Part shown: positions 914 through 25,252 of the stretch, one piece after another
How the letters are laid out: each line of letters opens with the position of its first letter
Numbering within the stretch: position 1 is the stretch's first letter
Source of the DNA: Candidatus Fermentibacteraceae bacterium
Lineage (GTDB): Bacteria; Fermentibacterota; Fermentibacteria; Fermentibacterales; JCC-6
NCBI GenBank assembly: GCA_041750285.1
Contig: JBGSZS010000011.1
Location: forward strand, 64,001-128,000
DNA length: 64,000 nucleotides
Direction: 5' to 3'
The notes under the pieces: generated by a model
Database searches by the model: none
What the model was told of the DNA's origin: nothing
What the model saw: the letters and a program-made list of their open reading frames with translations, nothing else
Translations under genes and position numbers: made by a program

Positions 914-1555
914 ATGTCATCAAAGGGGTCTTTCTTCTTGATTGCTGCTCTGATGGTGTTTGCAGCTTTCGCAAACGCCGGTGAGCTTCCCGCCACCGCC
1001 GGCCCGAGCTGGCAGTACGCACCCGTGGCGCAGGGCACCGACATGGGTTCCAGCATTCCCCTCTACAACGACCGGGTTGATTCAGCCATCGACCAGAACC
1101 AGCCCAGCGGATCAACCTACATCGCGGCGTTCAGCCAGACCGGCCTCGCCCAGTCATTCCAGCAGACTAACACCAACATCAACGGTGCCGGTATCCTTCT
1201 CCAGGCCTCCGTCGGCTCAAGCGCTCCCGTCACCATCCAGCTCTGGACAAACCTTCCGAATGCCGGGGGTTCCATGCTGGCTGAAGCCACCGCTACAGGC
1301 ACTGCGGGGACATGGGTCGACGTATACTGGACCTACGTCACTGTCACCCCCGCGACCACGTACTATCTGGTGTTCACCGGCAACACGAGTCTGGGAATAG
1401 CCGGCGAGATAAACAATCCCTACGCCTTCGGCCAGTGCTACGCAAACGCTGGTTACGGTTCGTACCCGAACTTCGATTACGCCTTCAGGACCTTCTACCA
1501 GTTGGACGTCGCCCTTTCCCGCGACACCTGGGCGGGTGTGAAGAGCTCCTTCTAG
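914..1555 (+). CDS. Secreted beta-rich protein with C-terminal TWAGVKSSF motif
   Basis: GGAGG RBS, Sec signal ending AFANA, beta-sandwich-like body, C-terminus ALSRDTWAGVKSSF. Confidence 0.85.
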   Translation: MSSKGSFFLIAALMVFAAFANAGELPATAGPSWQYAPVAQGTDMGSSIPLYNDRVDSAIDQNQPSGSTYIAAFSQTGLAQSFQQTNTNINGAGILLQASVGSSAPVTIQLWTNLPNAGGSMLAEATATGTAGTWVDVYWTYVTVTPATTYYLVFTGNTSLGIAGEINNPYAFGQCYANAGYGSYPNFDYAFRTFYQLDVALSRDTWAGVKSSF

Positions 1556-1573
1556 CACACCCGTTTTGTAAGG

Positions 1574-1606
1574 GAGGCCCGGGCCGCAAAGCCCGGGCCT
1601 CTTTTC
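1574..1606 (+). terminator. Intrinsic terminator
   Basis: GAGGCCCGGGC-CGCAAA-GCCCGGGCCTC followed by TTTT. Confidence 0.8.
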
Positions 1607-1611
1607 GATAT

Positions 1612-1646
1612 CAAGAGAGCGGCCCGCTCCTTTCGGAACGGGCCGC
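1612..1646 (-). terminator. Hairpin, probable terminator of the S8 gene
   Basis: GCGGCCCG...CGGGCCGC inverted repeat just past the S8 stop codon. Confidence 0.55.
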
Positions 1647-1663
1647 ACGCGTCTCTTCAGTTG

Positions 1664-3424
1664 CTAGCGCAGCAGCGTGAGCCTTGAAACCGCGGCGCCC
1701 GAGGGGCCTGAAACCCTCACGAAATAGAGGCCGTTGGCGAGGTTGCCGGGAATGTTCCACATGAAGTTGTGGGAACCCGGGTTGATGTCGCCGTTGTGTA
1801 CCGAGGCCACTGCACGACCCGCGACGTCGTAGACGTTGAGGGATACGGTCTGGGCCGCGGGGACGTAGAGGGAGAAGGAGGCGTGGGAAACGGCAGGGTT
1901 GGGGGAAACGCCGGAGAGGAACATGGTCGATGGGTCGACCGCGGCGCCGCTGGCCTCTTCGTTCCCAACCATCTCAAGGGCGGCCAGGACTGCCTGATAG
2001 ATGTCAACACGGCCTGCGCCGTAGATGTTGTCCTTGCCCGCAGCCCCGAGGTCGACGGATGTCATCTCCAGAAGGGAGTCCATCTGGGCGTTGGTGAGGT
2101 TGGGGTTGGCATCGAGGAGGAGGGCCATGCAGCCGGCGATGTGCGGCGTTGCCATCGAGGTTCCGCTCATCGTGGTGTAGCCCGAGGGGTTGCTGTAGCT
2201 GAGGCTCACAACGTCTACGCCGGGTCCGGAGATGTCGGGGTCGATGAGGCCGATGGCCGGGGCGGTGTCGGGGTAGTCGAACCAGGGGGCGTCGTACTTC
2301 CAGGTGGAGTAACCGACGCTGGAGAAGGAAGCGATGTTGTCATTGCTGTCGGTGGCGCCAACGGTTACAACGGCCGAAAGACCGCCGGTCGTTGTCTGGT
2401 CGGGGTGAAGCCATGGGGGAGGGCAGTCGCCGGGGGTGCGGATGTCGCCCGGGTAGGAGGGATTTCCGCCCTCGTTACCGGCGGCGATGGCATGGTGAAC
2501 ACCTGCTGCAAGGCTGTTCTCGACTACTTCCCGCCACTCCTGACGGTTCGGATTCTGGCTCTGGGGCCAGCCGAAGGATGAAGAGACTACGCTTGCGCCA
2601 TGCTCGACGGCGAACTCGTAGGCATCCCAGCACTGCTGTTCGGTGGAGAACGTCATGGCGGTCTTGAGCGCCATGATGGTAGCCTCGGGTGCAACGCCGG
2701 TCTGGGTGCCGGAGGTGCCGTCACCCGCAACCGTGCCGGCCGTGTGGGTGCCGTGACCGCTTGTGTCCATGGGGTCGCCGGTGCCGCTTGCGAAGTTCCA
2801 GCCGTAGTGGTAACCGGCGGCGGTGTCGTGCCACATCTGGTTGTGGATGTCGTTGTGGTTGTAGTTGACACCCGTGTCGACGACGGCGACGATGATGCCT
2901 TCGCCTTCGTAACCGAGGGCCCAGACGTCGGGGGCGTTTATCTTCTCAAGACCCCAGGTGGTGGCGAGCCTGACCTCTTCGGGAGTTGGTTCCCTGACGT
3001 CGACCGGTTCGATGCTGATGTCGGTGTAGGTGACCAGGGAGATGTATTCAACATCACCCCGAAGGGAGAGCTGCCTGATCGCCTGCGGTGTTGCGTGGCA
3101 TCCTATGGCATTGACTATCCAGCTCTGGTGAACCTCTGTGACTGCTCCGCCGGGAAAGTCGGCCATGGCTTCCACTATCGGCTGCTGAGCCTGGGTGGCG
3201 AAGGCCTTGAGCACGCTGACGGCGAGCTCCCGTCTCTGGTCGGGCGTCATGTTGGAGGCAACGCTGTTTATGTAGTCGAGGTCTGCGCGTCCAACCGGCA
3301 TTACAAGCACGGGGATGAGCCGGTCGGGGGCCGACAGGGCCATCTCCAGTTGAAGCTGCTCGCTGATGACACCGGCGAAGCCGGAGGCAGCGATGAGAAG
3401 AACTAGAAGCAAGGGGGTTTTCAT
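1664..3424 (-). CDS. S8 subtilisin-family serine peptidase with propeptide and T9SS-type C-terminal domain
   Basis: Signal peptide MKTPLLLVLL; catalytic triad VAVVDTG, HGTHTAG, GTSMATP; oxyanion AAGN; tail SPNP...VYDVAGR...GLYFVRV...RLTLLR. Start moved to ATG 3424 because of a GAAAGG RBS. Confidence 0.95.
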   Translation of the reverse strand: MKTPLLLVLLIAASGFAGVISEQLQLEMALSAPDRLIPVLVMPVGRADLDYINSVASNMTPDQRRELAVSVLKAFATQAQQPIVEAMADFPGGAVTEVHQSWIVNAIGCHATPQAIRQLSLRGDVEYISLVTYTDISIEPVDVREPTPEEVRLATTWGLEKINAPDVWALGYEGEGIIVAVVDTGVNYNHNDIHNQMWHDTAAGYHYGWNFASGTGDPMDTSGHGTHTAGTVAGDGTSGTQTGVAPEATIMALKTAMTFSTEQQCWDAYEFAVEHGASVVSSSFGWPQSQNPNRQEWREVVENSLAAGVHHAIAAGNEGGNPSYPGDIRTPGDCPPPWLHPDQTTTGGLSAVVTVGATDSNDNIASFSSVGYSTWKYDAPWFDYPDTAPAIGLIDPDISGPGVDVVSLSYSNPSGYTTMSGTSMATPHIAGCMALLLDANPNLTNAQMDSLLEMTSVDLGAAGKDNIYGAGRVDIYQAVLAALEMVGNEEASGAAVDPSTMFLSGVSPNPAVSHASFSLYVPAAQTVSLNVYDVAGRAVASVHNGDINPGSHNFMWNIPGNLANGLYFVRVSGPSGAAVSRLTLLR

Positions 3425-3519
3425 ACCGTTCCTTTCAGTGTTGGGAAAAGGGAACAACAACATACGAAAAATATAATGAATTCCGCGGGAAAAAAACGGG
3501 GTCGGTGAAGAAGGACATG

Positions 3520-3954
3520 TCAGGGAAGGATCCTGACTGCGGATACGAATCGTCTGACGTAGTTGGACTGGTCTATCGGGGTTACCGTGACCCCGATGTT
3601 CCTGTAGGAAGAGGAATGGACGAAGTTGCCGTTGCCGATGTAAATGCCCACATGACCGGGATTCTGGAAAATGAGAAGGTCGCCGGGAAGGATGCTGTCG
3701 CGGGGGACCTCGGTTCCCGCCGATGCCATGGCACCCGCCGTGCGGGGGAGGGTGACGCCGTTGTCACCGAATACCCTGTACACAAGACCGCTGCAGTCGA
3801 AACCCGACGAATCGGTTCCGCCCCATACGTAGGGAGTGCCAACGTGTGAGAGGGCATCGGATACGATGGCGTCGGCGAGGTCGACACGAGGAAGCGAATC
3901 GGAGGCTGTTGCAGCAGCGAGAACCATGGCGGCCAATAATGCGCAGAAAGGCAT
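3520..3954 (-). CDS. NlpC/P60 (C40) cell-wall peptidase
   Basis: GTPYVWGG, FDCSG, LPRTA, PGDLLIF, HVGIYIG, HSS. Confidence 0.93.
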   Translation of the reverse strand: MPFCALLAAMVLAAATASDSLPRVDLADAIVSDALSHVGTPYVWGGTDSSGFDCSGLVYRVFGDNGVTLPRTAGAMASAGTEVPRDSILPGDLLIFQNPGHVGIYIGNGNFVHSSSYRNIGVTVTPIDQSNYVRRFVSAVRILP

Positions 3955-3955
3955 G

Positions 3956-5667: not shown

Positions 5668-5682
5668 GACCTGTCCAAATGG

Positions 5683-5713
5683 AAAAGGGGGGCGGAAACG
5701 AGTTCCGCCCCCC
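5683..5713 (-). terminator. Intrinsic terminator after the 5723 gene
   Basis: GGGGGGCGGAA-ACGAG-TTCCGCCCCCC with an adjacent AAAA, which is a U tract on the minus strand. Confidence 0.8.
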
Positions 5714-5722
5714 GCAGCAGGA

Positions 5723-6556
5723 TTAGAAGGAGCTCTTGATGTTTGCCCAGGTGGAGGGGGAGAGGGACTGGGGGTCCCAGTCGATGTCGAGAACGTAGAG
5801 GAAGGAGTTCTGGGGGTAGACGTAGAGGTATTCGCCGTCGTAGTCGATACCGCCGTTGACTTCGGCCTCTTCGGTGAAGGTGGCGGACCACACCGGTGTG
5901 GGATTGGGTGAGCCGTCAGGGTTGATGTAGTGGATGAAGATATTGTCTTCGTCGGCAAGGCCGCAGGCAACGAACAGGTAGTCGCCCCAGACCGCGAGGC
6001 CGTAGACGGATGTGTAGGGGATCTCGGTCCAGCCGCTGATGCTTGTTTCTGTTCCGGTGTAGGGGCCCCAGGCGAGGACATCTTCGTTGGGGGAACCGAC
6101 ATACACCTGACCCTTGCCGGCACCGATCCCGAAGAGGTTGGTATATCCGGCAGGACCGGCGATGTTGGCCACGTGCGACCCGTTCTCGGCAAAAACGGCG
6201 AACATGCTGGTGCCGTAATCGGTCATGAACCAGCGGTTGCCGGTGCCGTACTCGCAGTAGGCCTGATCGTCGGGGTCGACGCCTTCGGTGATCTCCCAGG
6301 AACCTTCGGGGGCGCCGGTGACCATGTCGAACTCGTAGTTCACCAGGTCGCTCCAGTTGAGTATCCAGATGCTGTTGGGAACGTTGTCCTGGATGGCAAG
6401 GCCGTAGGAGGCGCTGAGGCCGCCTATGAGGGTGCTTACGACGGTGTAGCTTCCCCTGTTGTAGCTGGGATTCTCGGAATGGCTCGGGCCTCCCGTTCTG
6501 ACAGAGGCGAACGCGCTGACGGTAAGGCAGACAAGTAACACGGCAAGAATTCTCAT
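5723..6556 (-). CDS. Secreted beta-propeller-like protein with C-terminal TWANIKSSF motif
   Basis: Signal peptide MRILAVLLVCLTVSAFA; repeated YGLA/FGIG/GGID blade starts; ends SLSPSTWANIKSSF. Confidence 0.85.
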   Translation of the reverse strand: MRILAVLLVCLTVSAFASVRTGGPSHSENPSYNRGSYTVVSTLIGGLSASYGLAIQDNVPNSIWILNWSDLVNYEFDMVTGAPEGSWEITEGVDPDDQAYCEYGTGNRWFMTDYGTSMFAVFAENGSHVANIAGPAGYTNLFGIGAGKGQVYVGSPNEDVLAWGPYTGTETSISGWTEIPYTSVYGLAVWGDYLFVACGLADEDNIFIHYINPDGSPNPTPVWSATFTEEAEVNGGIDYDGEYLYVYPQNSFLYVLDIDWDPQSLSPSTWANIKSSF

Positions 6557-6688
6557 GATCCTCTCCATTCATTTCTGAGTGCAGGCTTCAATCTAATATT
6601 TCATTCGGGCTGTTCTGTCAATAAGCTGTCCATCACATCCCGGCCTTCGCTGCGGCTATATTCATCGCAATGACGGGGGAGGTCTTCA

Positions 6689-8324: not shown

Positions 8325-8381
8325 ATTCCTTTTCCTTTCCGGTATGTTTTCACAGAGCCTATTGTAATGGAAAGGATGACC

Positions 8382-11551: not shown

Positions 11552-11579
11552 GCCGGGAATATGAACAGGAAACAACGGG

Positions 11580-12311: not shown

Positions 12312-12788
12312 ATGGGCGAGTGCAAAGTTGCCAGGGTGCTTGGAAAGTATCCTGGAGCAGGCAGGGACAAGCTGATCCCCATCCTCCAGGAGGTTCAGGA
12401 GGCGGAGGGATTCCTCCGAAGGGAAGCCGTGGTGATGATCGGTCGGCATCTGGGTGTTCCGACCAGCCAGATCTTCGGCGTTGCCACCTTTTACAACCAG
12501 TTCAGGTTTGAGCCGGTGGGAAGGTTCCACATCCAGATCTGCCGGGGAACCGCCTGTCACGTGAAGGGTTCGGCAAAGCTTCTGGATACGCTCAAACGCG
12601 AACTTGGCGTGGAGCCGGGAAGGACCACCAGGGATGGGCTGTTCAGCATCGAGGTGGTGGCCTGCATCGGCGCCTGCGGACTTGCCCCCGTGATCTCCAT
12701 AAATGGCGAGTTCCATGCCAGGGTGACTCCCGAGGAGATACCGGTTCTTCTGGAAGGCTGCCGCAAAAAATCACGGGAGGTGAGCTGA
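12312..12788 (+). CDS. hydC: [FeFe]-hydrogenase [2Fe-2S] subunit (HydC / NuoE-like)
   Basis: LIPILQEVQ, GVATFY, CRGTACHV, ACIGAC. Confidence 0.92.
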   Translation: MGECKVARVLGKYPGAGRDKLIPILQEVQEAEGFLRREAVVMIGRHLGVPTSQIFGVATFYNQFRFEPVGRFHIQICRGTACHVKGSAKLLDTLKRELGVEPGRTTRDGLFSIEVVACIGACGLAPVISINGEFHARVTPEEIPVLLEGCRKKSREVS

Positions 12789-14779
12789 TGCCCGTGATAC
12801 TGGACAACTGCTGCGGTCTGTGCACCCATTCCCCAGCCTCTCCCTGCCCGCAGGCCGTGGAATGCCTCAGCGACGGGCCGCTCTGCCACAGTGATGAATC
12901 CTGCGCGCTAAAAAGGGAGTCGTGGAAGACCGCTGTGAGCCACAGTGGAAAAAAGACCCCGGTCATCTTCGTTGGAGCCGGTACCTGCGGCCTCGGTGCG
13001 GGGGCGGCGGCTACGATGGTTGCGATCCGTGAGTTTCTCGAAGCCCGCTCGCTGGAATGCATAATGGTGGAGGTCGGCTGCATAGGCCTTTGTGCAGTGG
13101 AGCCGATAGTCGACATCGAGCTGCCGGGCAGACCAAGGGTCTCCTTCATGGAAGTCACGCATGACCGGGTTGGCGTTCTTCTCGATTCCATGCTTGTGAG
13201 GGGTGAGGTGCCTTCCAAAATGGCGCTCTGTCAGTTCCCGGGAAGCGGTGAGCCGTGGAGCGGGGTCCCCCTCTTCAACGAACATCCCTTCTTTGCCCCA
13301 CAGACGAGATGGGTCCTCGAGAACTGCGGCATAATGGACCCGGTGAGCCTTGATGAATACATGGCGGAAGGCGGATACCGCGCCTTCTCGACGGCCCTCA
13401 GGACACTCACGCCCGACCAGGTCTGTTCCATCGTCGAAGGGAGCGGCCTCAGGGGAAGGGGCGGCGGCGGCTTCCCCACGGGAAGGAAATGGCGGTTCGC
13501 CCTGAACACCCCCTCGGGATCCAAGTATGTGATCTGCAATGCGGATGAGGGTGATCCCGGGGCATTCATGGACAGGGCGGTCATCGAGGGTGACCCCCAC
13601 AGGCTGATCGAAGGGATAGCCATTGCCTCGTATGCTGTGGGAGCCAACAACGCCTACATCTACATAAGGGCCGAGTACCCCCTGGCGATCCGGAGGCTGA
13701 AGGTTGCCCTGGAGCAGGCGGAGAGGAATGGCCTGCTCGGAACCAACATCTTCGACAGCGGCTTCGATCTTCACATCATGATAAAAATGGGCGCAGGCGC
13801 TTTCGTATGCGGCGAGGAGACGGCCCTGATCCACAGCATCGAGGGCCAGAGGGGCATGCCTTCTCCAAAGCCGCCGTTCCCCGCGGTCAGCGGGCTCTTC
13901 GGCAAACCCACGGTGATCAACAATGTAGAGACGCTTGCCAACGTTCCCGGGATCATCCGCCAGGGCGCGGAGTGGTTCCGATCCAAAGGCACTCCGAACA
14001 GCCCGGGAACAAAGGTGTTCGCCCTTTCAGGCAAGATCGCGAACACAGGGCTGATCGAGGTCGCCATGGGGATAAGCCTTGATGAGATCCTGTTCGGAAT
14101 GGGTGGCGGCATTCCCAACGGCAAGGCCTTCAAGGCGGTTCAGATCGGCGGCCCTTCAGGCGGTTGCATACCGGCAGGCCATACCGACCTCCTCATCGAC
14201 TACGAATCCCTGGGTGCATTCGGAGCCATGATGGGTTCAGGCGGACTCGTGGTTATGGATGAGGACACCTGCATGGTGGATGTGGCCAAGTTCTTCATGG
14301 ACTTCATACAAAGGGAAAGCTGCGGCAAGTGCATCCCCTGCCGCGAGGGCACCCGCCGGATGCTCGAGATACTCAGGGCCATAACCCGCGGTTACCGTGA
14401 CGAGACCCCTGAGCAGTCCCTTGAAAGGTTCAGGGGCATACTGAACCTGGAGAGGCTCGGGCAGGTCATCAGGAAGACCAGCCTCTGCGGCCTTGGCCAG
14501 ACCGCTCCCAACCCTGTGCTCAGCACGCTCAGGTGGTTCAGGGACGAGTACGAAGCGCACATCTTCGAGAGAAGGTGTCCCGCGGGGGTCTGCACGGGGC
14601 TGCTCACCTACTCCATTGACGAGGAGAAGTGCCGCGGATGCACCCTCTGTGCCAAAAAATGTCCCTCCGGCGCCATCAAGGGCGCAAGGAAGAGCCCCCA
14701 TTACATAGTGACCCAGGAATGCATCGGATGCGGCGCCTGCCTTGAGGTCTGCCCCTTCGGCGCCGTCAAGGTTCAGTGA
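12788..14779 (+). CDS. hydB: [FeFe]-hydrogenase diaphorase subunit (HydB / NuoF-like), bifurcating type
   Basis: N-terminal thioredoxin-like 2Fe-2S domain (GTCG...GCIGLC); GLRGRGGGGFP; CNADEGDPGAFMDR; GAFVCGEETAL; GGPSG; ESCGKCIPCREG; two C-terminal CxxCxxCxxxCP motifs. Confidence 0.95.
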   Translation: MPVILDNCCGLCTHSPASPCPQAVECLSDGPLCHSDESCALKRESWKTAVSHSGKKTPVIFVGAGTCGLGAGAAATMVAIREFLEARSLECIMVEVGCIGLCAVEPIVDIELPGRPRVSFMEVTHDRVGVLLDSMLVRGEVPSKMALCQFPGSGEPWSGVPLFNEHPFFAPQTRWVLENCGIMDPVSLDEYMAEGGYRAFSTALRTLTPDQVCSIVEGSGLRGRGGGGFPTGRKWRFALNTPSGSKYVICNADEGDPGAFMDRAVIEGDPHRLIEGIAIASYAVGANNAYIYIRAEYPLAIRRLKVALEQAERNGLLGTNIFDSGFDLHIMIKMGAGAFVCGEETALIHSIEGQRGMPSPKPPFPAVSGLFGKPTVINNVETLANVPGIIRQGAEWFRSKGTPNSPGTKVFALSGKIANTGLIEVAMGISLDEILFGMGGGIPNGKAFKAVQIGGPSGGCIPAGHTDLLIDYESLGAFGAMMGSGGLVVMDEDTCMVDVAKFFMDFIQRESCGKCIPCREGTRRMLEILRAITRGYRDETPEQSLERFRGILNLERLGQVIRKTSLCGLGQTAPNPVLSTLRWFRDEYEAHIFERRCPAGVCTGLLTYSIDEEKCRGCTLCAKKCPSGAIKGARKSPHYIVTQECIGCGACLEVCPFGAVKVQ

Positions 14780-14791
14780 GGAAGGTTGGCA

Positions 14792-16507
14792 ATGAAGATC
14801 ACACTGAACGGAAGAACAATGGAGGCAAGGGAAGGCGAGACCATCCTCTCCGCTGCGAGAAGGCTGGGACTCGACATTCCCACGCTCTGTCACATGGAGG
14901 GCCTTCCGCCAACCGGCACCTGCCGAGTGTGCGTGGTGGAGGACCGCAAGACCGGGAAGCTCATACCCTCCTGCTCCTTCCCCGTATCCGACGGGATGGA
15001 CATCGCAACCCATTCCAACCAGGCCGTTGCCGCCAGGAAGACGATAATCGAGCTCCTTCTCGCATCACACCCCGACGACTGCCTTTACTGCCCGGGGAAC
15101 GGAACCTGTGTTCTTCAGCGATACGCACAGGAGCTGGGGGTCAGGCAGAGGAGCTATTCGGGAGCCAGGAACAGGATCAATCTCGACGTGTCAAGCCCGT
15201 CCATAATCCGCGATCCGGAGAAGTGCATACTCTGCGGAAGGTGCGTGAGGGTCTGCTCCGAAGTTCAGGGAGTCTCGGCCATCGATTTCACCGGAAGGGG
15301 CAGCAGCGCACAGATCGGGTGCGCGTTCAACGAGGGGCTGAACGTTTCCAGCTGCGTGAACTGCGGACAGTGCGTGATGGTCTGCCCCACGGGCGCCCTC
15401 ACGGAGCGCAGGGATGTGGACAGGGTTCTCAAGGCTCTTGACGACCCTTCGATGACCGTGGTCGTTCAGCACGCGCCGGCCGTTTCCGTCACACTCGCAG
15501 AGGAGTTCGGGATCAAGCCCGGAAGCGAAATCGTCGACAGGATGAACGCAGCTTTCAGAAGGATGGGGTTCGACAGGGTTTTCCCGACAAGCTTCAGCGC
15601 CGACCTCACAGTGATGGAGGAAGCCCACGAGCTTGTTCAGAGGGTTCGCAGCGGAGGCCCTTTCCCCATGTTCACGAGCTGTTCTCCGGGCTGGATCAAG
15701 TACCTCGAGGAGTTCTTCCCACAGATGCTCGGCAACGCTTCCACATGCAAGAGCCCCCAGCAGATGATGGGTGCCGTCATAAAAAGGCTCTGGGCTCCCG
15801 CCTCAGGTCTCGACCCGAGGAAGGTCTTCAGTGTTTCCGTCATGCCCTGCACGGCAAAGAAGTTCGAAGCCGCCAGACCGGAGATGGGGGATGGGGCACC
15901 CGATGTTGACGCAGTCATAACCACCAGGGAACTGGCGGAGATGGTCCGGATGTTCGGAATAGACATTTCTTCGCTGGAAGGCGAGGAAGCCGACAGCCCC
16001 TTCGGTGAGAGAAGCTCGGCCGGCAAGCTTTTCGGCGCCTCGGGCGGCGTCATGGAAGCCGCAGCCAGAACCGCCTACCACATGCTCACGGGAGAAAACC
16101 TCAAGGAATTGAGGATCGAGGCGGTCAGGGGACTGGATGACGTTAAGGAAACAAGGCTGACCATTGCCGGGATCGAGCTGAAACTGGCGGTGGTGAGCGG
16201 ACTTGGCAATGCGGGACGACTGCTGCGTGACATCATCGATGGGAAGCGGGAGTACCACTTCGTTGAGGTCATGACATGCCCCGGTGGCTGCATCAACGGT
16301 GGTGGCCAGCCATTCCTCACCGATCCGGAGAGGGTCAGGGCAAGGATGCAGAGCCTGTACGAGATCGACAGGAACGCGACACTCAGGGTCGCCCACGAGA
16401 ACAGATCGATCGCCGCGCTCTACCGTGATCATCTTGACGAACCCGGCAGCGGAAAGGCCCATCACATCCTTCACACCACATATTCTCCCAGGGAGGTTCT
16501 CAGGTAG
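14792..16507 (+). CDS. hydA: [FeFe]-hydrogenase catalytic subunit HydA (group A3)
   Basis: 2Fe-2S, His-ligated 4Fe-4S and 2x4Fe-4S domains; H-cluster motifs FTSCSPGW, MPCTAKKFE, EVMTCPGGCINGGGQP. Confidence 0.96.
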   Translation: MKITLNGRTMEAREGETILSAARRLGLDIPTLCHMEGLPPTGTCRVCVVEDRKTGKLIPSCSFPVSDGMDIATHSNQAVAARKTIIELLLASHPDDCLYCPGNGTCVLQRYAQELGVRQRSYSGARNRINLDVSSPSIIRDPEKCILCGRCVRVCSEVQGVSAIDFTGRGSSAQIGCAFNEGLNVSSCVNCGQCVMVCPTGALTERRDVDRVLKALDDPSMTVVVQHAPAVSVTLAEEFGIKPGSEIVDRMNAAFRRMGFDRVFPTSFSADLTVMEEAHELVQRVRSGGPFPMFTSCSPGWIKYLEEFFPQMLGNASTCKSPQQMMGAVIKRLWAPASGLDPRKVFSVSVMPCTAKKFEAARPEMGDGAPDVDAVITTRELAEMVRMFGIDISSLEGEEADSPFGERSSAGKLFGASGGVMEAAARTAYHMLTGENLKELRIEAVRGLDDVKETRLTIAGIELKLAVVSGLGNAGRLLRDIIDGKREYHFVEVMTCPGGCINGGGQPFLTDPERVRARMQSLYEIDRNATLRVAHENRSIAALYRDHLDEPGSGKAHHILHTTYSPREVLR

Positions 16508-18526
16508 ATGGATTCAATACAGGAACCCCTGGTACAGACGGTTCCCGAGAAGTGCAGGGTCTGTTACACCTGCGTCCGGGAATGCCCCGCCAAGGCGATA
16601 AGGATTCAGGAGGGGCAGGCCGAGGTTGTCACCGAGAGGTGCATCGCCTGCGGCAATTGCGTCAAGGTCTGCACAAGGGGCGCCAAGAAGGCCAGGGTGA
16701 ACATCTCCGACGTGGAGACGCTCCTCGCTTCCGGCCGCAGGGTGGCTGCCATGATCGCGCCAAGTTTTCCAGCCGATTTTCCTGGCATCACACCCCGGAA
16801 GCTGGTGGGGATGCTCAACAAACTGGGCTTTCACCCGGTGACCGAGGTCGCATTCGGCGCAGACCTCGTTGCCCATGCCTACAGGGAGCTTCTGCGCAGC
16901 CATCCCGACAGGCGTTACATAGCCGTGAACTGTCCCGCTGTCGTGACCTATGTTGAGAAGTACATGCCGCAGCTGATCCCATTCCTCGCACCGATCGTTT
17001 CGCCGATGGTAGCCGAGGCCAGGGTGGTGAGGCGGTTCTACGGCGATGACACCGCAGTGGTCTTCATCGGTCCCTGCATCGCGAAGAAGGACGAAGCGCC
17101 TTCCGAGGTTGACCAGGTCCTGACGTTCATAGAACTGCAGGAACTCTTCAGGAAGGCCGGCATCAACCCGGACCAGGTCGAGGAGGCATCCTTCAATCCG
17201 CCGTCCCCCGGTCTCGGCATGGTCTTCCCCATAAGCGGGGGCATGCTTCAAGCCGCCGACATCAAGGAAGACCTGGTGTCGGGAGACATAGTTACCGCCG
17301 AGGGCAGGGCGGGATTCCTCGAGGCCCTGAAAGAGTTCGGCAACATGGACATGGACGCAAGGCTCCTGGAGCTGCTCTGCTGCGACGGCTGCATCATGGG
17401 CCCGGGGATGTCGACGAAGGAAGCCATCTTCAGGCGCCGCGCAAGGATCAGCCAGTACTCCAGGAACAAGCTCGAAGAGATAAACTTCAACCACTGGAAC
17501 GTGGCCATGGAGCGGGCGGGCGAGGTCGACCTCGAAAGGGGTTTCGCGGAAAAGGACACAAGGCTTTCGTCACCGGAAGAGGACGATGTTCATGAGATCC
17601 TCCACCGGATGGGCAAGTTCACGCCCGAAGACGAGCTCAACTGCGGTGCCTGCGGGTACGACACCTGCCGCGAGCACGCCATCGCCATACTCAAGGGGCT
17701 CGCCGAGAGCGAGATGTGCCTTCCCTATGCGATAGACCAGCTGAAGCTGACCGTTGACGAACTGGCTGGAACAAGGGTCGCCCTGAAGCACGCCGAGAAG
17801 ATGGCCGGCATGGGCCAGCTTGCCGCCGGCATAGCACATGAGGTGAACAATCCCCTTGGTGTGGTGCTGATGTACGCCCACACGCTTCTGGACGAAAGGT
17901 CGGCCCAAGACCCGGAACTGGCCGAAGACCTCAGGACGATCGCCGTGCACGCGGACCGGTGCAAGAAGATCGTGGCCGGCCTGCTCGATTTCGCAAGGCA
18001 GAACAAGGTCTCCCGCAGGGAAACCGATCTGCCCGCATTCGCTGTGAAAGTCGCGTCGGACCTGCCGAGGCCCGACGGTGTGGAGTTCATGACCGAAAAC
18101 AGGATGAGGGACCCGATGGTGAGCCTCGATGACGACCAGTTCGCCCAGGTCGTGATCAATCTCGTCCAGAACGCATACCAGGCAATGAGCGGCGGAGGCA
18201 GGCTGCTGCTGTCCTTCGATGACCGCGACAACAAGGTCAGCATGAAGGTCACCGATACCGGCACGGGGATCGAACCCGAGAACATGAAGAAGATCTTCGA
18301 GCCCTTTTTCACCACCAAGCCCAGGGGCAAGGGTACGGGGCTCGGGCTTGCGGTGACCTATGGAATAGTGAAAATGCACCGTGGAGGGATAACGGCCGTT
18401 TCCAACACCGACCCCGGGAAGGGTCCCACGGGCACCACATTCACAGTCACCCTCCCCCGGAGGGTCAATGAGGATGAAGGAAGGACCGACAATGAAGGAG
18501 CACCTGACAATTCTCCTGGTGGATGA
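16508..18526 (+). CDS. Sensory-type [FeFe]-hydrogenase domain fused to a histidine kinase (group C-like)
   Basis: 2x4Fe-4S; variant H-domain motifs AVNCP, GPCIAKKDE, ELLCCDGCIMGPG; FeS module LNCGACGYDTC...MC; HisKA AGIAHEVNNPL; HATPase N, G1, F, G2 boxes. Confidence 0.9.
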   Translation: MDSIQEPLVQTVPEKCRVCYTCVRECPAKAIRIQEGQAEVVTERCIACGNCVKVCTRGAKKARVNISDVETLLASGRRVAAMIAPSFPADFPGITPRKLVGMLNKLGFHPVTEVAFGADLVAHAYRELLRSHPDRRYIAVNCPAVVTYVEKYMPQLIPFLAPIVSPMVAEARVVRRFYGDDTAVVFIGPCIAKKDEAPSEVDQVLTFIELQELFRKAGINPDQVEEASFNPPSPGLGMVFPISGGMLQAADIKEDLVSGDIVTAEGRAGFLEALKEFGNMDMDARLLELLCCDGCIMGPGMSTKEAIFRRRARISQYSRNKLEEINFNHWNVAMERAGEVDLERGFAEKDTRLSSPEEDDVHEILHRMGKFTPEDELNCGACGYDTCREHAIAILKGLAESEMCLPYAIDQLKLTVDELAGTRVALKHAEKMAGMGQLAAGIAHEVNNPLGVVLMYAHTLLDERSAQDPELAEDLRTIAVHADRCKKIVAGLLDFARQNKVSRRETDLPAFAVKVASDLPRPDGVEFMTENRMRDPMVSLDDDQFAQVVINLVQNAYQAMSGGGRLLLSFDDRDNKVSMKVTDTGTGIEPENMKKIFEPFFTTKPRGKGTGLGLAVTYGIVKMHRGGITAVSNTDPGKGPTGTTFTVTLPRRVNEDEGRTDNEGAPDNSPGG

Positions 18527-18881
18527 CGACCAGGATTTCATAGAACAGATGCGTTACATGCTCGAGAGCGCCGGGCATATCGTTCACTCGGCTCCCGGAC
18601 GCGAGAAGGCCATGGAGGCCCTCGATGGCATGAAGCCCGACCTTGCCGTCATCGACCTGATGATGGACCGGAACGACGACGGTTTCGTGCTTGCATACAG
18701 GATGAAGAAGATGTATCCGGAGGTGCCGGTCATAATGGTGACCGCCGTTACGAGCGAAACCGGAATCGACTTCGGTTCCTCCGCAGATACCGGCGGCTGG
18801 ATGAGGGCCGACGCCCTTCTCCAGAAACCCGTGCGGTTCGAACAGCTCGATGCCACGATGCGGCGGCTTCTGAATGGCTGA
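18492..18881 (+). CDS. Single-domain response regulator (CheY-like)
   Basis: ILLVDDD, IDLMM phospho-Asp, VTA, QKP. Confidence 0.9.
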   Translation: MKEHLTILLVDDDQDFIEQMRYMLESAGHIVHSAPGREKAMEALDGMKPDLAVIDLMMDRNDDGFVLAYRMKKMYPEVPVIMVTAVTSETGIDFGSSADTGGWMRADALLQKPVRFEQLDATMRRLLNG

Positions 18882-20043
18882 CGAAATCATCCTCAAACTC
18901 CTGGTCGTCGACGACGAGGCGGGAATGCGCATGGGCGTCCGCCGGGCGCTGAGGGGATTCCAGACCGAGACCGACGACACGGGCACGACGGTGAAACTCA
19001 CGGTTGACGAGGCTGAAAGCGGTGAGCAGGCAATAGAGCTCATTCAGTCCGCCCCGCCGGACATAGTGCTTCTGGACCACAGGATGGGCGGAATCACAGG
19101 CATCGATGTGCTGAACTGGATGGAACAGAACAGCCCCGATGTCATCGCCATAATGATCACCGCCTACGCCTCGCTTGAGAATGCCATCAGCGCGACGAAA
19201 AAGGGTGCCTTCGACTTCCTTCCCAAACCATTCACCCCCGCCGAGTTGAAGGTAGCGGTCAGGCAGGCCGTCAAACACGTGCTTGCCCTGCGGGAGGCCC
19301 GTGAGCTGGCCGAGGAGAAGAAGCGGGTCCGCTTCCAGTTCATCAGCGTGCTGGCCCACGAGCTGAAGGCCCCCCTGGGAGCCATCGAGGGCTACCTGTA
19401 CCTTCTTCAGGACGGCACCGCCCTGAAGAATCCCGAAACCCTTCCCAGGGTCGTTGAAAGAAGTCTCATCCGTCTGCAGGGCATGCGGAAGCTGATCTTC
19501 GACCTTCTCGACCTGACCAGGATAGAGAGCGGAGAGAAGAAGCGGGAGCTTTCGCGAGTGGACCTTGCGGCGATCGCGATGACCAGCCGTGAGACCATGC
19601 TCCCCGACGCCGTGGCAAGGGGGATCACCATAACGCTGGATTCACCCGGGGAGCTCTTCATGAACGGTGACAGGGGCGAGATAGAGATCGTCCTGAACAA
19701 CCTCATCTCGAACGCGGTGAAGTACAACCGGGACAATGGAGCTGTCACTGTGAAGCTCTCCGATTCCGCAGACGAGGTGACCATTTCGGTCTCCGATACC
19801 GGCATTGGAATGACCCCGGAGGAGTGTGAACACCTTTTCGGCGAATTCGTAAGGATAAAGAACGACAAGACCCGGAACATACTTGGCAGCGGCCTCGGCT
19901 TGAACATCGTGAAGAGGATAGCCTCGCTGTACGATGGAAGAGTCTCTGTCGAAAGCACTCCCGACGTGGGAAGCACCTTCTCGGTGGTGCTTGGAAAAGG
20001 GAACGAAAAGGATCGGGTTGCTGCAGACGAGTTGACCGGATAA
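18874..20043 (+). CDS. Hybrid receiver-histidine kinase
   Basis: N-terminal REC (LVVDDE, LLDHRM, PKPF), then HELKAPL, NLISNAVKY, DTGIG, GSGLGL. Confidence 0.92.
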   Translation: MADEIILKLLVVDDEAGMRMGVRRALRGFQTETDDTGTTVKLTVDEAESGEQAIELIQSAPPDIVLLDHRMGGITGIDVLNWMEQNSPDVIAIMITAYASLENAISATKKGAFDFLPKPFTPAELKVAVRQAVKHVLALREARELAEEKKRVRFQFISVLAHELKAPLGAIEGYLYLLQDGTALKNPETLPRVVERSLIRLQGMRKLIFDLLDLTRIESGEKKRELSRVDLAAIAMTSRETMLPDAVARGITITLDSPGELFMNGDRGEIEIVLNNLISNAVKYNRDNGAVTVKLSDSADEVTISVSDTGIGMTPEECEHLFGEFVRIKNDKTRNILGSGLGLNIVKRIASLYDGRVSVESTPDVGSTFSVVLGKGNEKDRVAADELTG

Positions 20044-20088
20044 GTCGACTCACACTATATCATCTCCGTCATGAAAAGGAGATGACAT

Positions 20089-22173
20089 ATGTTCTGTGCG
20101 TTTCTGCTCTGGGTTTCCGTTTCCGGCTCGTCACTCACCCGCGCCGCCGGTTCGCTCGACAACCTGATCTACATCTGCCCTACCGCCGGTTCGGATTGGC
20201 AAAGTACTGAAACCCCTCTGATCATGGGTTTTGATGACCAGGTGCGGAGTGATCTTTCCATCACCGTGAACGGATCCGTTTCGGGAGCCGTGCCTTTTTC
20301 CGAATACGTCTCCGGGGATGGCAGAAGGCTGGTGCTCACTCCTTTGCATCCCTTCAGCCATGGCGAGGAGGTTCGTGTCCGGGTCGAGTCCCCGTGTTCA
20401 GGCCGTGTGGAGTGGCAGTTCATGGTAAGGCCTGTCGATCCCGTGCGGCCGGCGCCTGTGGAGACGGAGCCCCCGGGGCAGCCCTTCACGCCTGATCCTT
20501 ATCCTCTCAGTCCCGCCGGCAACTCTCCCAACGCCGTAGCACTGCCATCCGATTTCCCGCTTTTCACCTTCAACACGTACGGAACAACGGCCCCAGGCAA
20601 CCTCTTCTTCAGCCCCATGAACCCGATGGGGGGGAACACGAGCACCTACCTGATAATCGCCGGTCCCGGGGGTGACGTTCTGTTCTACAACAACGGTGTC
20701 TCAGGGTATTTCGGCCCCGAGGTCCAGTCCGACGGATGCCTCTACTATGCCTACGGCGGCATCATGACGGACGAAACGTTCTTCACCATGCTCGACATGA
20801 ACTATGTCCCGGTCGATTCATTCATGGTCGTCGGCTACACAACGGACTGCCACGGTATGACAGTTGCCCAGAACGACAATGTCATACTTCTGGGAATGGA
20901 CGAGCGCTACATCGACATGTCGCTGATCGTCCCCGGAGGCAACCCGAACGCCCTGGTCCAGGGGCTGCTCATCCAGGAGCAGGACAGGAACCACATGCCG
21001 GTATTCCAATGGAGCAGCTTCGACCATTTCGAGATCACCGACGCATGTTCCTACGTGAACCTCACCGGCCCGGTGGTGGACTATGTGCACTGCAACTCCG
21101 TCGACGAGGACCAGGACGGAGGGATCCTCGTCTCATGCCTCGCCATGACGGAATGCACCAAGATAGACAGGTCCACCGGCGAACTGGTCTGGCGTTTCGG
21201 AGGGTACCTCTCGGAAAACCCCAGCTTCACGATCCTCAACGACCCCCTGGGCGGATTCAGCTCCCAGCATGATTTCCGCCATGTGGAAGGCAGCCTCTAC
21301 TCGGTGTTCGACAACGGAACCCACCACAGCCCTCAGATATCCAGGGGCAGCATCTACGAGATCGACACCCAGAACCTCACTGCCGACCTCGTATTCAACT
21401 TTCAGGTTACAGGGCTCTACGGTTCCCACATGGGATCGACCCAGGTGCTGCCGAACGGCAACGTACTGGTGGGCTGGGGTGATGTGACGGGCTACCAGGT
21501 CAGGCCCGACATGACCGAGGTCTCGCCTGCGGGAACACAGGTCTTTCGCGGCCGCATGAACCAGCTGGTCCTTGAGAGCTACCGCGCCTACCGGTTCGAC
21601 TGGGAGGGCCAGGCACTGGTGCCGTACCTGGTCGCCCTGGTCCTTCCCGCACAGAACTGCGTTCAGCTGACCTTCAACGTATTCGGCGACGACGAATACT
21701 CATCCTACGACATCTACCAGGGAATCACCCCGGGAAACCTCTCGTTCCTGCTTAACACACAGAACAGACAGATCAACGTATGGGAGCTGCCGGTCGGAAT
21801 GAACTACTTCGCCGTTAAGGCAAGGGACATGCAGGGAGTTCCGACCGGGTTCTCGAACATCGATTCCGCCATGGTTACCTGGACGGGTCTTGAAGGCCGC
21901 TTCGCGGCTGAAGTGCAGCAGTCCCTCAGTGTCTCTGCCTATCCCAATCCCGCCTCTTCCAGCGTGACGGTGGTCTGGCCCGGGATCTCCGCGGGATCGG
22001 TGATCGAGATCTTCGACACAAGCGGACGGGTTGTCGCGAGAAGCAGCCATGATGAGGCATCGGGAGCCTGTTCCGGCGTCATGTCCGTCGAGGACCTTCC
22101 CAACGGGCTCTATACGATACGGGTAAGGACGGCGGAGCTTGCGGGATCGACCCGGGTGACGGTGATCCGCTAG
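20089..22173 (+). CDS. Aryl-sulfate sulfotransferase-like protein with Ig-like N-terminus and T9SS-type C-terminal domain
   Basis: DYVHCNS, QHD, FDNG, GSTQVLPNGN, SYRAYR motifs; tail YPNP...IFDTSGR...GLYTIRV...RVTVIR. Confidence 0.82.
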   Translation: MFCAFLLWVSVSGSSLTRAAGSLDNLIYICPTAGSDWQSTETPLIMGFDDQVRSDLSITVNGSVSGAVPFSEYVSGDGRRLVLTPLHPFSHGEEVRVRVESPCSGRVEWQFMVRPVDPVRPAPVETEPPGQPFTPDPYPLSPAGNSPNAVALPSDFPLFTFNTYGTTAPGNLFFSPMNPMGGNTSTYLIIAGPGGDVLFYNNGVSGYFGPEVQSDGCLYYAYGGIMTDETFFTMLDMNYVPVDSFMVVGYTTDCHGMTVAQNDNVILLGMDERYIDMSLIVPGGNPNALVQGLLIQEQDRNHMPVFQWSSFDHFEITDACSYVNLTGPVVDYVHCNSVDEDQDGGILVSCLAMTECTKIDRSTGELVWRFGGYLSENPSFTILNDPLGGFSSQHDFRHVEGSLYSVFDNGTHHSPQISRGSIYEIDTQNLTADLVFNFQVTGLYGSHMGSTQVLPNGNVLVGWGDVTGYQVRPDMTEVSPAGTQVFRGRMNQLVLESYRAYRFDWEGQALVPYLVALVLPAQNCVQLTFNVFGDDEYSSYDIYQGITPGNLSFLLNTQNRQINVWELPVGMNYFAVKARDMQGVPTGFSNIDSAMVTWTGLEGRFAAEVQQSLSVSAYPNPASSSVTVVWPGISAGSVIEIFDTSGRVVARSSHDEASGACSGVMSVEDLPNGLYTIRVRTAELAGSTRVTVIR

Positions 22174-22631: not shown

Positions 22632-22645
22632 TCCGAAGCTCCTAT

Positions 22646-23479: not shown

Positions 23480-23516
23480 TATTTCCTCCATGAGAGAACG
23501 CTGGAAAGGGTAATCA

Positions 23517-24107
23517 ATGAATACGATTATACCTTCGGAAGCTTTTACCGACCAACCCGTTCCCCTGATCCCGTGGCTCAGGGGTCTGGGGGTGTCCACG
23601 AAGAACATCACGGAGGATGACTGCCGGAAGGCAGCCCTGCCCCCTGATCCCGCCGGATGTGAAAGGCTTCTCAAGGTCTCGGCCCTTGTGGTGCATCATT
23701 CCGCCACAGAAAGCGGGGGAGCGGCAGCCTTTCGCGTTCTCCACCGCCTGGTGAAGGGTTGGAGGGATGTTGGCTACCACTTCGTCATAGGCAACGGCAC
23801 ACACTCGCCCGACGGATGTCTGGAGAGGGGAAGACCCGAGTACTGCAGGGGAGCCCACGCAAAGGGGGCAAACGAATTCTCACTGGGTATCTGCCTTGTT
23901 GGCGACTTCATGACGGGCAGGCCAACCCCTGCGCAGATGGGCACACTTGGAACCGTGCTTCGTGAACTAATGGCCTCGCAAGGCCTGGAGAAGGGTTCCG
24001 TGCTGCTCCACAGACAGGTCAGGGGCAGCTCCACCGAATGCCCGGGCAAGAACCTCACCCTCGCCATGGTGCATGAAGCAATTGACGGACAGAAAGATAG
24101 CACGTAA
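23517..24107 (+). CDS. N-acetylmuramoyl-L-alanine amidase (Amidase_2 / PGRP-like)
   Basis: VVHHSA, GWRDVGYHFVI, GAHAKGAN, SLGICLVG, HRQV...TECPG. Confidence 0.9.
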   Translation: MNTIIPSEAFTDQPVPLIPWLRGLGVSTKNITEDDCRKAALPPDPAGCERLLKVSALVVHHSATESGGAAAFRVLHRLVKGWRDVGYHFVIGNGTHSPDGCLERGRPEYCRGAHAKGANEFSLGICLVGDFMTGRPTPAQMGTLGTVLRELMASQGLEKGSVLLHRQVRGSSTECPGKNLTLAMVHEAIDGQKDST

Positions 24108-24174
24108 CCTGCCCGGGTGTTGCACAAAATCCCCGTCTTTGCTATATACCCGCGTCACCGGAAGGAACGAAAGA

Positions 24175-24399
24175 ATGACTTTTGTACTCACCATACTTCA
24201 TGTTGTCGTGAGCATCCTGCTTGTCGGGGTGGTTCTGCTTCAGAAATCCAAGGGCGACGGCCTCTCCGGCGCGTTCGGGGGTGGCGGCGCACTCACGGCC
24301 AGCTTCGGAAACACCGGAGCCGTGAGTTTCCTCAGCAGGGCAACCACTGTGCTTGCGGTGCTTTTCATGATCTTTTCATTTCTGCTGGCCATCGTCTGA
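24175..24399 (+). CDS. secG: Preprotein translocase subunit SecG
   Basis: VLLQKSKGDGLSGAFGGG, FG, FLSRATTVLA; two TM helices; followed by tRNA-Leu. Confidence 0.95.
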   Translation: MTFVLTILHVVVSILLVGVVLLQKSKGDGLSGAFGGGGALTASFGNTGAVSFLSRATTVLAVLFMIFSFLLAIV

Positions 24400-24406
24400 T
24401 GAGTGT

Positions 24407-24494
24407 GCCGGGGTGGTGGAATTGGCAGACACGCTAGGCTAAGGACCTAGTGGGCGAATAGCCTGTGCGGGTTCAAGTCCCGCCCCCGGTACCA
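24407..24494 (+). tRNA. tRNA-Leu with anticodon AAG
   Basis: Acceptor stem GCCGGGG/CCCCGGT, discriminator A plus CCA, D loop GGAATTGGCAGAC, long variable arm, T loop TTCAAGT. Anticodon stem CTAGG/CCTAG encloses CT-AAG-GA, with AAG at 24441-24443. Confidence 0.95.
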
Positions 24495-24496
24495 GA

Positions 24497-24530
24497 CAAG
24501 GAAAACCCCGCTCCGGCGGGGTTTTCCTTG
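24497..24530 (+). terminator. Terminator hairpin after tRNA-Leu
   Basis: CAAGGAAAACCCCGC-TCCG-GCGGGGTTTTCCTTG perfect inverted repeat. Confidence 0.8.
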
Positions 24531-24534
24531 TGGC

Positions 24535-24571
24535 AAAAAAGGAGAGCCGGCTTTTTGGGCCGGCTCTCTCC
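24535..24571 (-). terminator. Intrinsic terminator of the 24587 gene
   Basis: GAGAGCCGGC...GCCGGCTCTC preceded by AAAAAA, a U tract on the minus strand. Confidence 0.8.
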
Positions 24572-24586
24572 ATGGGTCTTACAAGG

Positions 24587-25252
24587 TTACCAGGAGGCCT
24601 TGATCTGGCCCCAGGTTGTCTCGGTGAGGGAGAAGGAGGGCTGGAGAACGATGTCGTCCCAGAAGATGGGGGTGCCGTTGTTACCGAAGATGTCGAGTGC
24701 GCCGAGGGTGAGGGTGGCGGACTCGCTCCAGAAGAACGTGTCGAACATGACATCGTTGTAGTAAACCCACTGGTTGTTGGCGTCGAGGTCGAAAACGACT
24801 TCCACGGGAACCCACTGGTCGTAGATGATGGTGGCGGTGCCCGTGCCCTCTTCAGTGGCTACCTGACCGGTGCTGTTGTTGAACTTGATGTCGGTGCACC
24901 ATTCATTTGTTCCGCTGGGGATGTAGATGCTGAGAAGGATGAAGTACTGGGTGCCGGTGGAACCCGACGGAATGTAGCAGCTCGCGGACATGGACCAGAC
25001 GCCGGCATTTACGCCGGTGAACTGCTGAACGATGTCGGTGGTCTGGATGGCGGAAAAGGAGTTGGGCGCGCTCTGGGCCTGGGCGGTGCTTACGAGGCCG
25101 TCGGCACCGGGGTTGCCGTCCCAGCCTTCCCATCCGCCCTGACCGATTATTCCGCCGCCGGCTGCATAGGAATCGAAGTTGTCGGACCAGTCAGCGAAGG
25201 CGGCGCCTGTCGCAAGAAGCATGCAGATCGATAACGTGTGGATGAGTTTCAT
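24587..25252 (-). CDS. Secreted jelly-roll-like protein with C-terminal TWGQIKASW motif
   Basis: Signal peptide ending AAFA; WSDNFDSY start and FWDDI end typical of beta-sandwich modules; ends SLTETTWGQIKASW. Confidence 0.85.
   Translation of the reverse strand: MKLIHTLSICMLLATGAAFADWSDNFDSYAAGGGIIGQGGWEGWDGNPGADGLVSTAQAQSAPNSFSAIQTTDIVQQFTGVNAGVWSMSASCYIPSGSTGTQYFILLSIYIPSGTNEWCTDIKFNNSTGQVATEEGTGTATIIYDQWVPVEVVFDLDANNQWVYYNDVMFDTFFWSESATLTLGALDIFGNNGTPIFWDDIVLQPSFSLTETTWGQIKASW

Follow-up and report, generated by a model that had tools for sequence, protein, structure and literature searches.

Three exported proteins with unrelated bodies, encoded in a 64,000-nucleotide stretch of a Candidatus Fermentibacteraceae genome, end in a common 14-residue tail, here called the TWG tail. 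The stretch (the window) corresponds to positions 64001–128000 of contig C11 of the source genome, G000. The tail is real, phylum-wide in Fermentibacterota and undescribed in the libraries and literature that we searched. We propose, with a probability of roughly 0.6, that it serves as a short, linear C-terminal tag for sorting or anchoring, recognised by a factor of the cell envelope.

Three exported proteins of the window share a C-terminal tail

The genes, their tails and the associated hairpins are as follows; scores refer to A1, a 22-position tail model built from 17 tails of G000.

914..1555, plus strand: P0001, a 213-residue exported protein with a Sec signal peptide (residues ~1–22), a body domain of ~140 residues (residues ~57–196) and then the TWG tail
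1511..1552, plus strand: tail of P0001, ALSRDTWAGVKSSF, with the stop codon directly 3′; 35.4 bits
5723..6556, minus strand: P0002, a 277-residue exported protein with a signal peptide, a five-bladed beta-propeller and the TWG tail
5726..5767, minus strand: tail of P0002, SLSPSTWANIKSSF, with the stop codon directly 3′; 34.3 bits
5687..5713, minus strand: terminator-like hairpin behind P0002, 11 pairs (9 G-C) and a T run, 10 nucleotides past the stop
24587..25252, minus strand: P0003, a 221-residue exported protein with a signal peptide, a ConA-like lectin/glucanase jelly-roll body and the TWG tail
24590..24631, minus strand: tail of P0003, SLTETTWGQIKASW, with the stop codon directly 3′; 35.3 bits
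24542..24568, minus strand: terminator-like hairpin behind P0003, 10 pairs (8 G-C) and a T run

A preliminary description of this DNA had reported a shared tail at one fixed distance from the stop, and translation of all three genes bears this out, each C-terminus following the pattern ..TW[GA]x[IV]K[SA]S[FW]-stop. The coordinates given there are correct, with the addition that the P0002 and P0003 genes both lie on the minus strand; for P0002, an alternative upstream ATG is possible at 6568 on that strand. The Sec signal peptides that it named are visible at the N-termini of P0001, P0002 and P0003. The bodies are not detectably related: pairwise BLAST aligns only 24–26 residues at the tail, with E values of 0.02–7, and the three proteins are not full-length homologues. 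Regarding the folds, the propeller stands (P0002, five-bladed), and one of the two proposed beta-sandwiches is refined to a ConA-like jelly roll (P0003). The terminator placed behind each gene is present for P0002 and P0003, and a hairpin scan found none behind P0001 (914–1555).

The tail recurs at C-termini throughout the genome

We estimated the role of chance from the 22,251 six-frame stop-to-stop frames of at least 60 residues in the 2.55 Mb assembly of G000, which is 95% complete. The regular expression [ST]W[GAS].[IVLM]K..[FWY] closes 13 frames exactly, versus ~0.0036 expected from amino-acid frequencies. When allowed anywhere in a frame, it matches 18 times, 17 of them no more than 21 residues from the stop and one in a spurious 81-residue frame. 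Specifically, 13 near-end matches lie at the very end, four are followed by 1–5 extra residues, and one is followed by 21.

Model A1 scores the 17 tails of G000 at 28–37 bits and everything else at 20 bits or less. Eight weaker matches are divergent C-terminal tails, including a ‘TFG’ variant family, and internal matches at E ≤ 10 are noise, except for a weak 13-bit partial match 57 residues from a stop. An independent model, A5, made from 16 YR-type tails of metagenomes, ranks the genome's own tails first and adds three, ending in ..FGAIKALYR, ..FGAIKAVFR and ..WGVAKALYRR; the alignments of A1 and A5 have an invariant W and K at identical spacing. G000 thus encodes ~28 tail proteins in total (17 strong, 8 divergent and 3 via A5), or ~1% of its proteome. 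With their chosen starts, the 17 strong ones are 203–321 residues long. The tail bodies of G000 form at least three multi-member families, one of them a tandem triplet on contig C12, together with several singletons.

Two variants of the tail were seen alongside these proteins. One family of ~165 residues (G000 C21:88361-89075, C8:150931-150990 and C19:182135-182188) has an N-terminal motif RYQVVVLxSEIG and a tail in which F replaces W (..[ST]FGxIKAxF plus 1–4 residues). A fourth member of the C12 triplet family is broken into two frames, one at G000:C18:48630-48680 (minus strand) and one beside it; it is likely a frameshifted pseudogene, and its tail has decayed to ..SWGQIKNLP.

The alignments give the consensus A-L-[EQ]-x-[TSD]-[TS]-W-[GA]-x-[IV]-K-[AST]-x-aromatic/hydrophobic, followed by 0–3 residues and the stop. 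In 199 tails from two families, with W numbered 0, the conserved positions are A(−6), L(−5), [EQ](−4), [TS](−1), [GA](+1), [IV](+3), K(+4), [AST](+5) and a hydrophobic or aromatic residue at +7. The K is present in all 199 and the W in 196, and, counted from the end, the W position is at 8 or 9 residues in 193 tails and at 10 or 11 in the other 6. In the P0003 family, 50 of 88 tails have 1–3 further residues after the hydrophobic one. Homologues of P0002, a family that appears confined to Fermentibacteria, are 44–88% identical to it, and 111 of 114 keep the tail; the three exceptions look truncated. At the DNA level, codons vary at the conserved L, T/S, G/A and I/V positions, and the 60 nucleotides 3′ of the stop are unrelated among tail genes (mean identity 28%). 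The tail is thus conserved by selection on the protein and not as a DNA repeat.

Furthermore, nearly all tail carriers have signal peptides, as anticipated in the preliminary description. A crude heuristic detects a signal peptide in 64 of the 70 complete tail frames taken from public Fermentibacteria contigs, versus 309 of 958 (32%) gene-like control frames of similar length, and the six negative tail frames are short and apparently 5′-broken.

The tail lies outside the fold of two unrelated bodies

The AlphaFold model of P0003 (104 sequences) has a mean predicted local distance difference test score (pLDDT) of 90.5, with body residues 21–205 above 95. In the last 16 residues (206–221), the pLDDT falls to blocks averaging 43–79, the last two at 56 and 43. 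A short helix is drawn at residues 214–219, on W-G-Q-I-K-A, and is not packed on the body. The model of P0002 (105 sequences; mean pLDDT 91.2, body above 95) behaves similarly, its last 17 residues (261–277) having a pLDDT of 56–64 and containing a short helix at 270–276. Foldseek matched the P0003 body to TtX122, the calreticulin lectin domain and galectin, and the P0002 body to propellers of the glutaminyl-cyclase and NHL types. In these predicted models, the tail is a flexible, low-confidence appendage outside the fold of two unrelated bodies.

The conservation pattern can be read on either secondary structure. As a strand, T/S(−1), G(+1), I(+3), A/S(+5) and F(+7) make up one fully conserved face, with W and K opposite, a pattern that would suit strand addition to the sheet of a partner. 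As a helix, W, I, K and F lie on one face, and G-x-x-x-[AS] would suit tight helix packing. Either way, the pattern seems to fit a protein socket better than lipid.

The tail takes the place of recognised anchors

Homologues of P0003 differ in how they end. Among the 120 listed, 88 have a TWG-type tail, nine PEP-CTERM, three a GC-type dockerin, one an IPTL-CTERM-like end and 11 a short tail of the form PVELxxFxVE, with eight truncated or other. Several of the PEP-CTERM ends are precomputed as PF07589 and one is so named by NCBI; one GC-type dockerin is likewise named as such. At E ≤ 1e-3, a search of 1.84 billion representatives gave 510 relatives of the P0001 body (~140 residues), and these are mostly PEP-CTERM-anchored. 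Among its best 150 relatives, at least 37 carry a clear PEP-CTERM directly after a common ..FDYxFRTY motif, many more carry related transmembrane anchors, two a TWG tail and one a PVEL tail. In two unrelated body families, the tail thus stands where other lineages place recognised sorting or anchoring signals, and this choice of anchor is the strongest functional argument for a sorting or attachment signal. G000 has no match to exosortase (PF09721) at E ≤ 0.01 and none to PEP-CTERM (PF07589) at E ≤ 0.1.

The second short tail, ..PVELxxFxVE-stop, is found on homologues of P0001 as well as of P0003, in the place of the TWG tail. Its carriers are P0089, P0095, P0097, P0098, P0102, P0104, P0105, P0107, P0118, P0121, P0123 and P0418, and it may be another undescribed tag.

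Distribution across genomes and phyla

In Fermentibacterota, A1 matches at E ≤ 1e-3 occur in all 70 genomes examined (14/14 genera and 46/46 high-quality genomes), with 1–28 matches per genome. We also scanned one genome per species of bacteria and archaea with the strict DNA pattern L-x3-T-W-G-x-I-K-xx-[FY]-stop, which gave at least 125 stretches. Among the 125 listed, ~119 are real frames ending in the tail and ~6 are chance matches on short frames; the 80 listed loci that have titles are nearly all Fermentibacteria, Aegiribacteria, Sabulitectum or ‘uncultured bacterium’.

Outside this phylum we sampled 201 genomes from the phylum that holds Chryseobacterium (the Bacteroidota-type sample). 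A1 matches two of them, and A5, the YR-type model, matches 64, in 63 cases exactly once. The 11 A5 loci that were inspected encode a small conserved protein (~130–150 residues) with a signal peptide, an Fn3-like body and the end ..RRTWGSIKA[LM]FR. No Pfam or NCBIfam family matched this protein, and a protein atlas places clusters of it in Ignavibacteriota and Bacteroidota. This protein may represent the ancestral client of whatever reads the tail, or belong to the reading machinery itself. A Maf-like gene lies 3′ of it in five of the 11 loci. The first strand of its body (V-x-L-x-x-F-x-A) resembles the PVELxxFxVE tail.

In two other phyla, reached via mis-binned contigs, A5 matched 0/151 and 0/151 genomes. 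A YR-type homologue of P0003 falls in an atlas cluster found most often in Eiseniibacteriota, next to clusters in Acidobacteriota and Poribacteria; we treat this as a lead only. A metagenome scan yielded 16 further YR-type tails incidentally.

Relation to the type IX secretion system

G000 encodes a type IX secretion system (T9SS), with SprA, a porU–porV pair and, beyond that pair, four PorV-like barrels and two PorU-like genes.

G000 C16:91875-96602; C19:140532-147990; C9:174099-175016; C18:134577-135629; C5:27561-28484; C4:106678-107760: three PorU-like sortases, two of them in tandem, and five PorV-like barrels

The presence of three PorU-like genes is seen again in five other Fermentibacterota genomes. 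The T9SS C-terminal domain (CTD) family PF18962 has 69 matches in G000, 36 of them over the cut-off and in frames with a median length of 609 residues. The preliminary description had assigned T9SS-type C-terminal domains to four other proteins of the window, which Pfam models confirm.

1664-3463, minus strand: S8 subtilase with T9SS CTD
20089-22173, plus strand: arylsulfotransferase-like propeller with T9SS CTD
39331-41571, plus strand: C25 gingipain-like peptidase with propeptide and T9SS CTD
50331-50960, plus strand: 209-residue protein with T9SS CTD

Tail and CTD were said to be mutually exclusive, and none of the 69 PF18962 matches in G000 bears the tail. We found no sequence likeness of the tail to the CTD or to its last strand, and no paralogues of tail bodies with a CTD within G000. 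A metagenome scan with a narrow pattern (tail, 2–12 codons, PNP) revealed no in-frame tail-plus-CTD protein in 118 stretches. Longer P0003 homologues prove to be Anaerolineae peptidases without PF18962. In CTD proteins of G000, the residues immediately N-terminal to the CTD often read ..tGiEg/gvEe.

In six genomes, the counts of tails and CTDs rise together (1/28, 2/47, 2/38, 12/72, 17/69 and 28/148), which may reflect only the size of the secretome. In the Bacteroidota-type sample, all 64 tail-positive genomes are SprA-positive and none of the 39 SprA-negative genomes has the tail, with a naive Fisher p of 5e-8. However, 37 of those 39 belong to one sampling stratum and are possibly a single lineage; 98 SprA-positive genomes of the sample have no tail. 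PorU-like paralogues were rejected as partners of the tail, their copy number being the same in tail-poor and tail-rich genomes. G000 also encodes a secretin, so another outer-membrane route may exist.

A proposed tag read in the envelope, and rival explanations

The preliminary description had posited a second export or surface-attachment signal with a dedicated reader. The signal part of that claim is supported by the recurrence of a tag near the C-terminus, its occurrence on unrelated folds and its replacement of other anchors; for the reader part, none was found. As we picture it, Sec export and removal of the signal peptide would leave a free tail, which would be bound by a shared component of the envelope, in the form of an added beta-strand or a short helix. 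This component might then keep the protein on the cell surface or at the outer membrane, or pass it to a route of export across the outer membrane. With no membrane-spanning segment in the tag, an exosortase- or sortase-type enzyme, whose signals are embedded in the membrane, could not be the reader.

Several points weigh against the tag reading. Neighbourhood and genome comparisons linked no receptor, protease or translocon to the tail: at 12 tail loci, Pfam scans of the neighbouring proteins (first 71, then 18) revealed no family in common, and clustering of the flanking frames at 68 tail loci revealed no common partner. The argument from choice of anchor is indirect. The tag is dispensable in some lineages, because TWG-poor genomes such as G018, which has a single match, keep 28 T9SS-CTD proteins. 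Finally, a receptor that strictly reads the terminal carboxylate seems disfavoured, because the distance from tail to C-terminus varies by 0–3 residues, with outliers in G000 of up to 5 and 21.

One version of the tag reading ties it to type IX secretion: the small proteins would use that system without a folded CTD, directly or via a CTD-bearing adaptor, or would dock to a T9SS-associated component such as a PorV-like barrel. The full T9SS of G000 (SprA, five PorV-like, three PorU-like and 69 CTD matches), the joint climb of tail and CTD counts in six genomes, the restriction of tails to SprA-positive genomes in the 201-genome sample (64 versus 0/39) and the lack of A5 matches in two other phyla (0/151 and 0/151) speak for such a link. 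We nevertheless regard it as rather doubtful, since phylogeny is confounded with T9SS (37/39 SprA-negatives in one stratum), 98 SprA-positive genomes do without the tail, tail and CTD in G000 are always on separate proteins and share no sequence likeness, the number of PorU-like paralogues is independent of tail number, the 118 metagenome stretches gave no in-frame fusion under a narrow pattern, and the secretin offers a possible alternative route. Alternatively, W-G-x-I-K-x-x-F could lie on a membrane leaflet as a short amphipathic helix, like the C-terminal helices of PBP5/PBP6 or MinD, and need no protein receptor. Both AlphaFold models do draw a helix on this segment (214–219 and 270–276), with W, I and F on one helical face and K adjacent, but it spans only 6–7 residues at low confidence. 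Known in-plane membrane anchors are poorly conserved in sequence, whereas the W, G/A, I/V and K of the tail, together with its A-L and [TS] further upstream, are near-invariant across unrelated proteins and several phyla. Its conserved glycine and its small residues are also more in keeping with tight packing on a partner than with binding to lipid. An in-plane anchor is therefore improbable.

A periplasmic PDZ protease, of the Ctp/Prc/tricorn-like S41 or the HtrA family, might instead clip the tail in maturation or control turnover through it, the tail being a C-terminal pro-peptide or stability tag. PDZ proteins of G000 include a 1005-residue tricorn-like S41 protease near one tail gene, a PDZ protein is encoded in an operon of the window with an extracytoplasmic function (ECF) sigma factor, and the last three residues of the tail, [STA]-x-[F/W], presumably resemble PDZ class I ligands. 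Yet the 14 conserved residues far exceed a PDZ ligand, and many tails run 1–3 residues beyond the aromatic (Q, R, K, TE, VE), so that the carboxylate register is lost. S41/PDZ proteases are, to our knowledge, near-universal, unlike the tail, which is absent from two sampled phyla, and replacement by PEP-CTERM or dockerin anchors would be left unexplained. We consider protease targeting quite improbable. That the tail is no signal at all, and is instead what is left of a common C-terminal domain, a repeat in the DNA or a product of chance, has only the motif's short length in its favour; with 13 matches observed versus ~0.004 expected, varying codons and 28% downstream identity excluding a DNA repeat, and unrelated bodies that fold without the tail, this explanation is almost certainly wrong.

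Returning to the tag read by an envelope factor, we tentatively put forward a more specific form, to which we give somewhat less than even odds. The TWG tail would be the address tag of an unrecognised envelope-sorting route of the Fibrobacteres–Chlorobi–Bacteroidetes (FCB) group, in which a receptor reads an unfolded 14-mer without a transmembrane helix and the protein is then anchored at the surface or passed through the outer membrane with the type IX machinery.

Neighbouring genes and other features of the window

The only recurrent neighbour of tail genes is a pair, SurA-like lipoprotein P0168 and membrane protein P0169 (WaaL fold and TPR), behind one propeller family. Two T9SS-CTD genes flank the operon, which is syntenic in several genera.

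L007:8001-12250 (G000:C18:253444-257693): operon of a TWG-tailed propeller, the 522-residue SurA-like lipoprotein P0168 and the 593-residue polytopic WaaL-like P0169 with a C-terminal TPR-like domain

P0169 was rejected as a general reader because only 38 of 70 genomes (23 of the 46 good ones) were found to encode it; it is also missing from two genomes of the same genus that have 13–16 tails.

Also in the window is a three-gene unit on the minus strand (42483-44375), encoding an ECF sigma factor, a zf-HC2 anti-sigma factor and a 285-residue protein with a C-terminal PDZ domain; it is possibly a sensor of envelope stress that recognises C-terminal peptides. The plus-strand region 12312-20043 holds an NADH-dependent [FeFe]-hydrogenase cluster (2Fe-2S thioredoxin-like, Nuo51-like and HydA-like) and, 3′ of that cluster, genes for a histidine kinase with a fused hydrogenase-like domain (16508-18526), for a receiver protein and for a hybrid kinase, likely an H2- or redox-sensing two-component system.

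Contigs from three sediment metatranscriptome runs of one study cover P0002 at 5718-6545 and parts of the S8 gene, with almost nothing on P0001; contigs of this kind cannot rank expression. A tRNA-Arg(CCG) gene lies just upstream of P0001 (609-684, plus strand), and RNA-library contigs of other organisms pile up there.

Comparison with known sorting systems

We found no Pfam or NCBIfam model of the tail. No NCBIfam model matched P0001–P0003 at E ≤ 10, and their C-termini do not show the make-up of MYXO-CTERM or other tripartite signals. A Pfam scan of the three proteins at E ≤ 1 gave neither PF18962 nor PF13860, and the Pfam and NCBIfam scans gave no dockerin family, classical or GC-type. Searches of the literature by motif strings and by topic returned no paper on this tail, and a term search of the Hyd24-12 genome paper (PMC5030696) gave neither ‘C-terminal’ nor ‘sorting’.

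The claimed difference from LPXTG, PEP-CTERM and GlyGly-CTERM holds: there is no transmembrane helix or hydrophobic stretch in or after the 14-residue tail. PEP-CTERM, which depends on exosortase (PF07589; PF09721), is nonetheless close in usage. Both mark the C-termini of Sec-exported proteins, many of them small and lectin-like. In homologues of P0001 and P0003, PEP-CTERM stands exactly where the tail does, after the body domain, and the genes for its cargo are scattered and unlinked to the machinery. In build, PEP-CTERM (TIGR02595) combines a PEP motif, a transmembrane helix and a basic cluster and needs exosortase, whereas the tail has none of these motifs. The T9SS type A CTD (PF18962/TIGR04183) is likewise a C-terminal export or attachment signal, present in the same genome and the same group of phyla, but it is a folded Ig-like domain of ~70–80 residues (a model of ~75 positions), whereas the tail is an unfolded 14-residue segment on proteins of 200–320 residues. 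GC-type dockerins occupy the tail site in three P0003 homologues, and a small C-terminal plug for a surface socket is an image that fits the tail; dockerins, however, are folded modules of ~40–70 residues, and no cohesin-like partner was identified for the tail. The beta-signal of outer-membrane proteins, read by the beta-barrel assembly machinery (BAM), also has a C-terminal aromatic after alternating small and hydrophobic residues, as in I-K-A-S-F. That signal is the last strand of a membrane barrel, whereas tail bodies are soluble jelly rolls and propellers, and its aromatic stands at the very end, whereas that of the tail is often followed by 1–3 residues.

Work on LPXTG, PEP-CTERM and the T9SS CTD uncovered a dedicated machine in each case, and all three signals are used to predict surface proteomes. 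The TWG tag marks ~1% of the G000 proteome and occurs in every genome examined of Fermentibacterota, an uncultured phylum, and its carriers, lacking a family model, are annotated only as ‘hypothetical’. A tail model would label thousands of exported proteins and provide a handle for finding the receptor.

In possible working, the tail might be likened to KDEL and the peroxisomal targeting signal 1 (PTS1/SKL), which are short, unfolded, near-C-terminal tags of eukaryotes that are read by a soluble or membrane receptor and need no cleavage. The analogy would extend to the way of working only; domain of life, compartment and sequence differ, and there is no sign of relatedness. If the FCB-group route proposed above is real, its tag would be a bacterial counterpart of KDEL- and PTS1-type tags, standing in for exosortase-type anchoring. 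In kind, a C-terminal sorting tag is known; the build of this one, short and with neither a transmembrane helix nor a fold, is undescribed in the libraries and literature searched.

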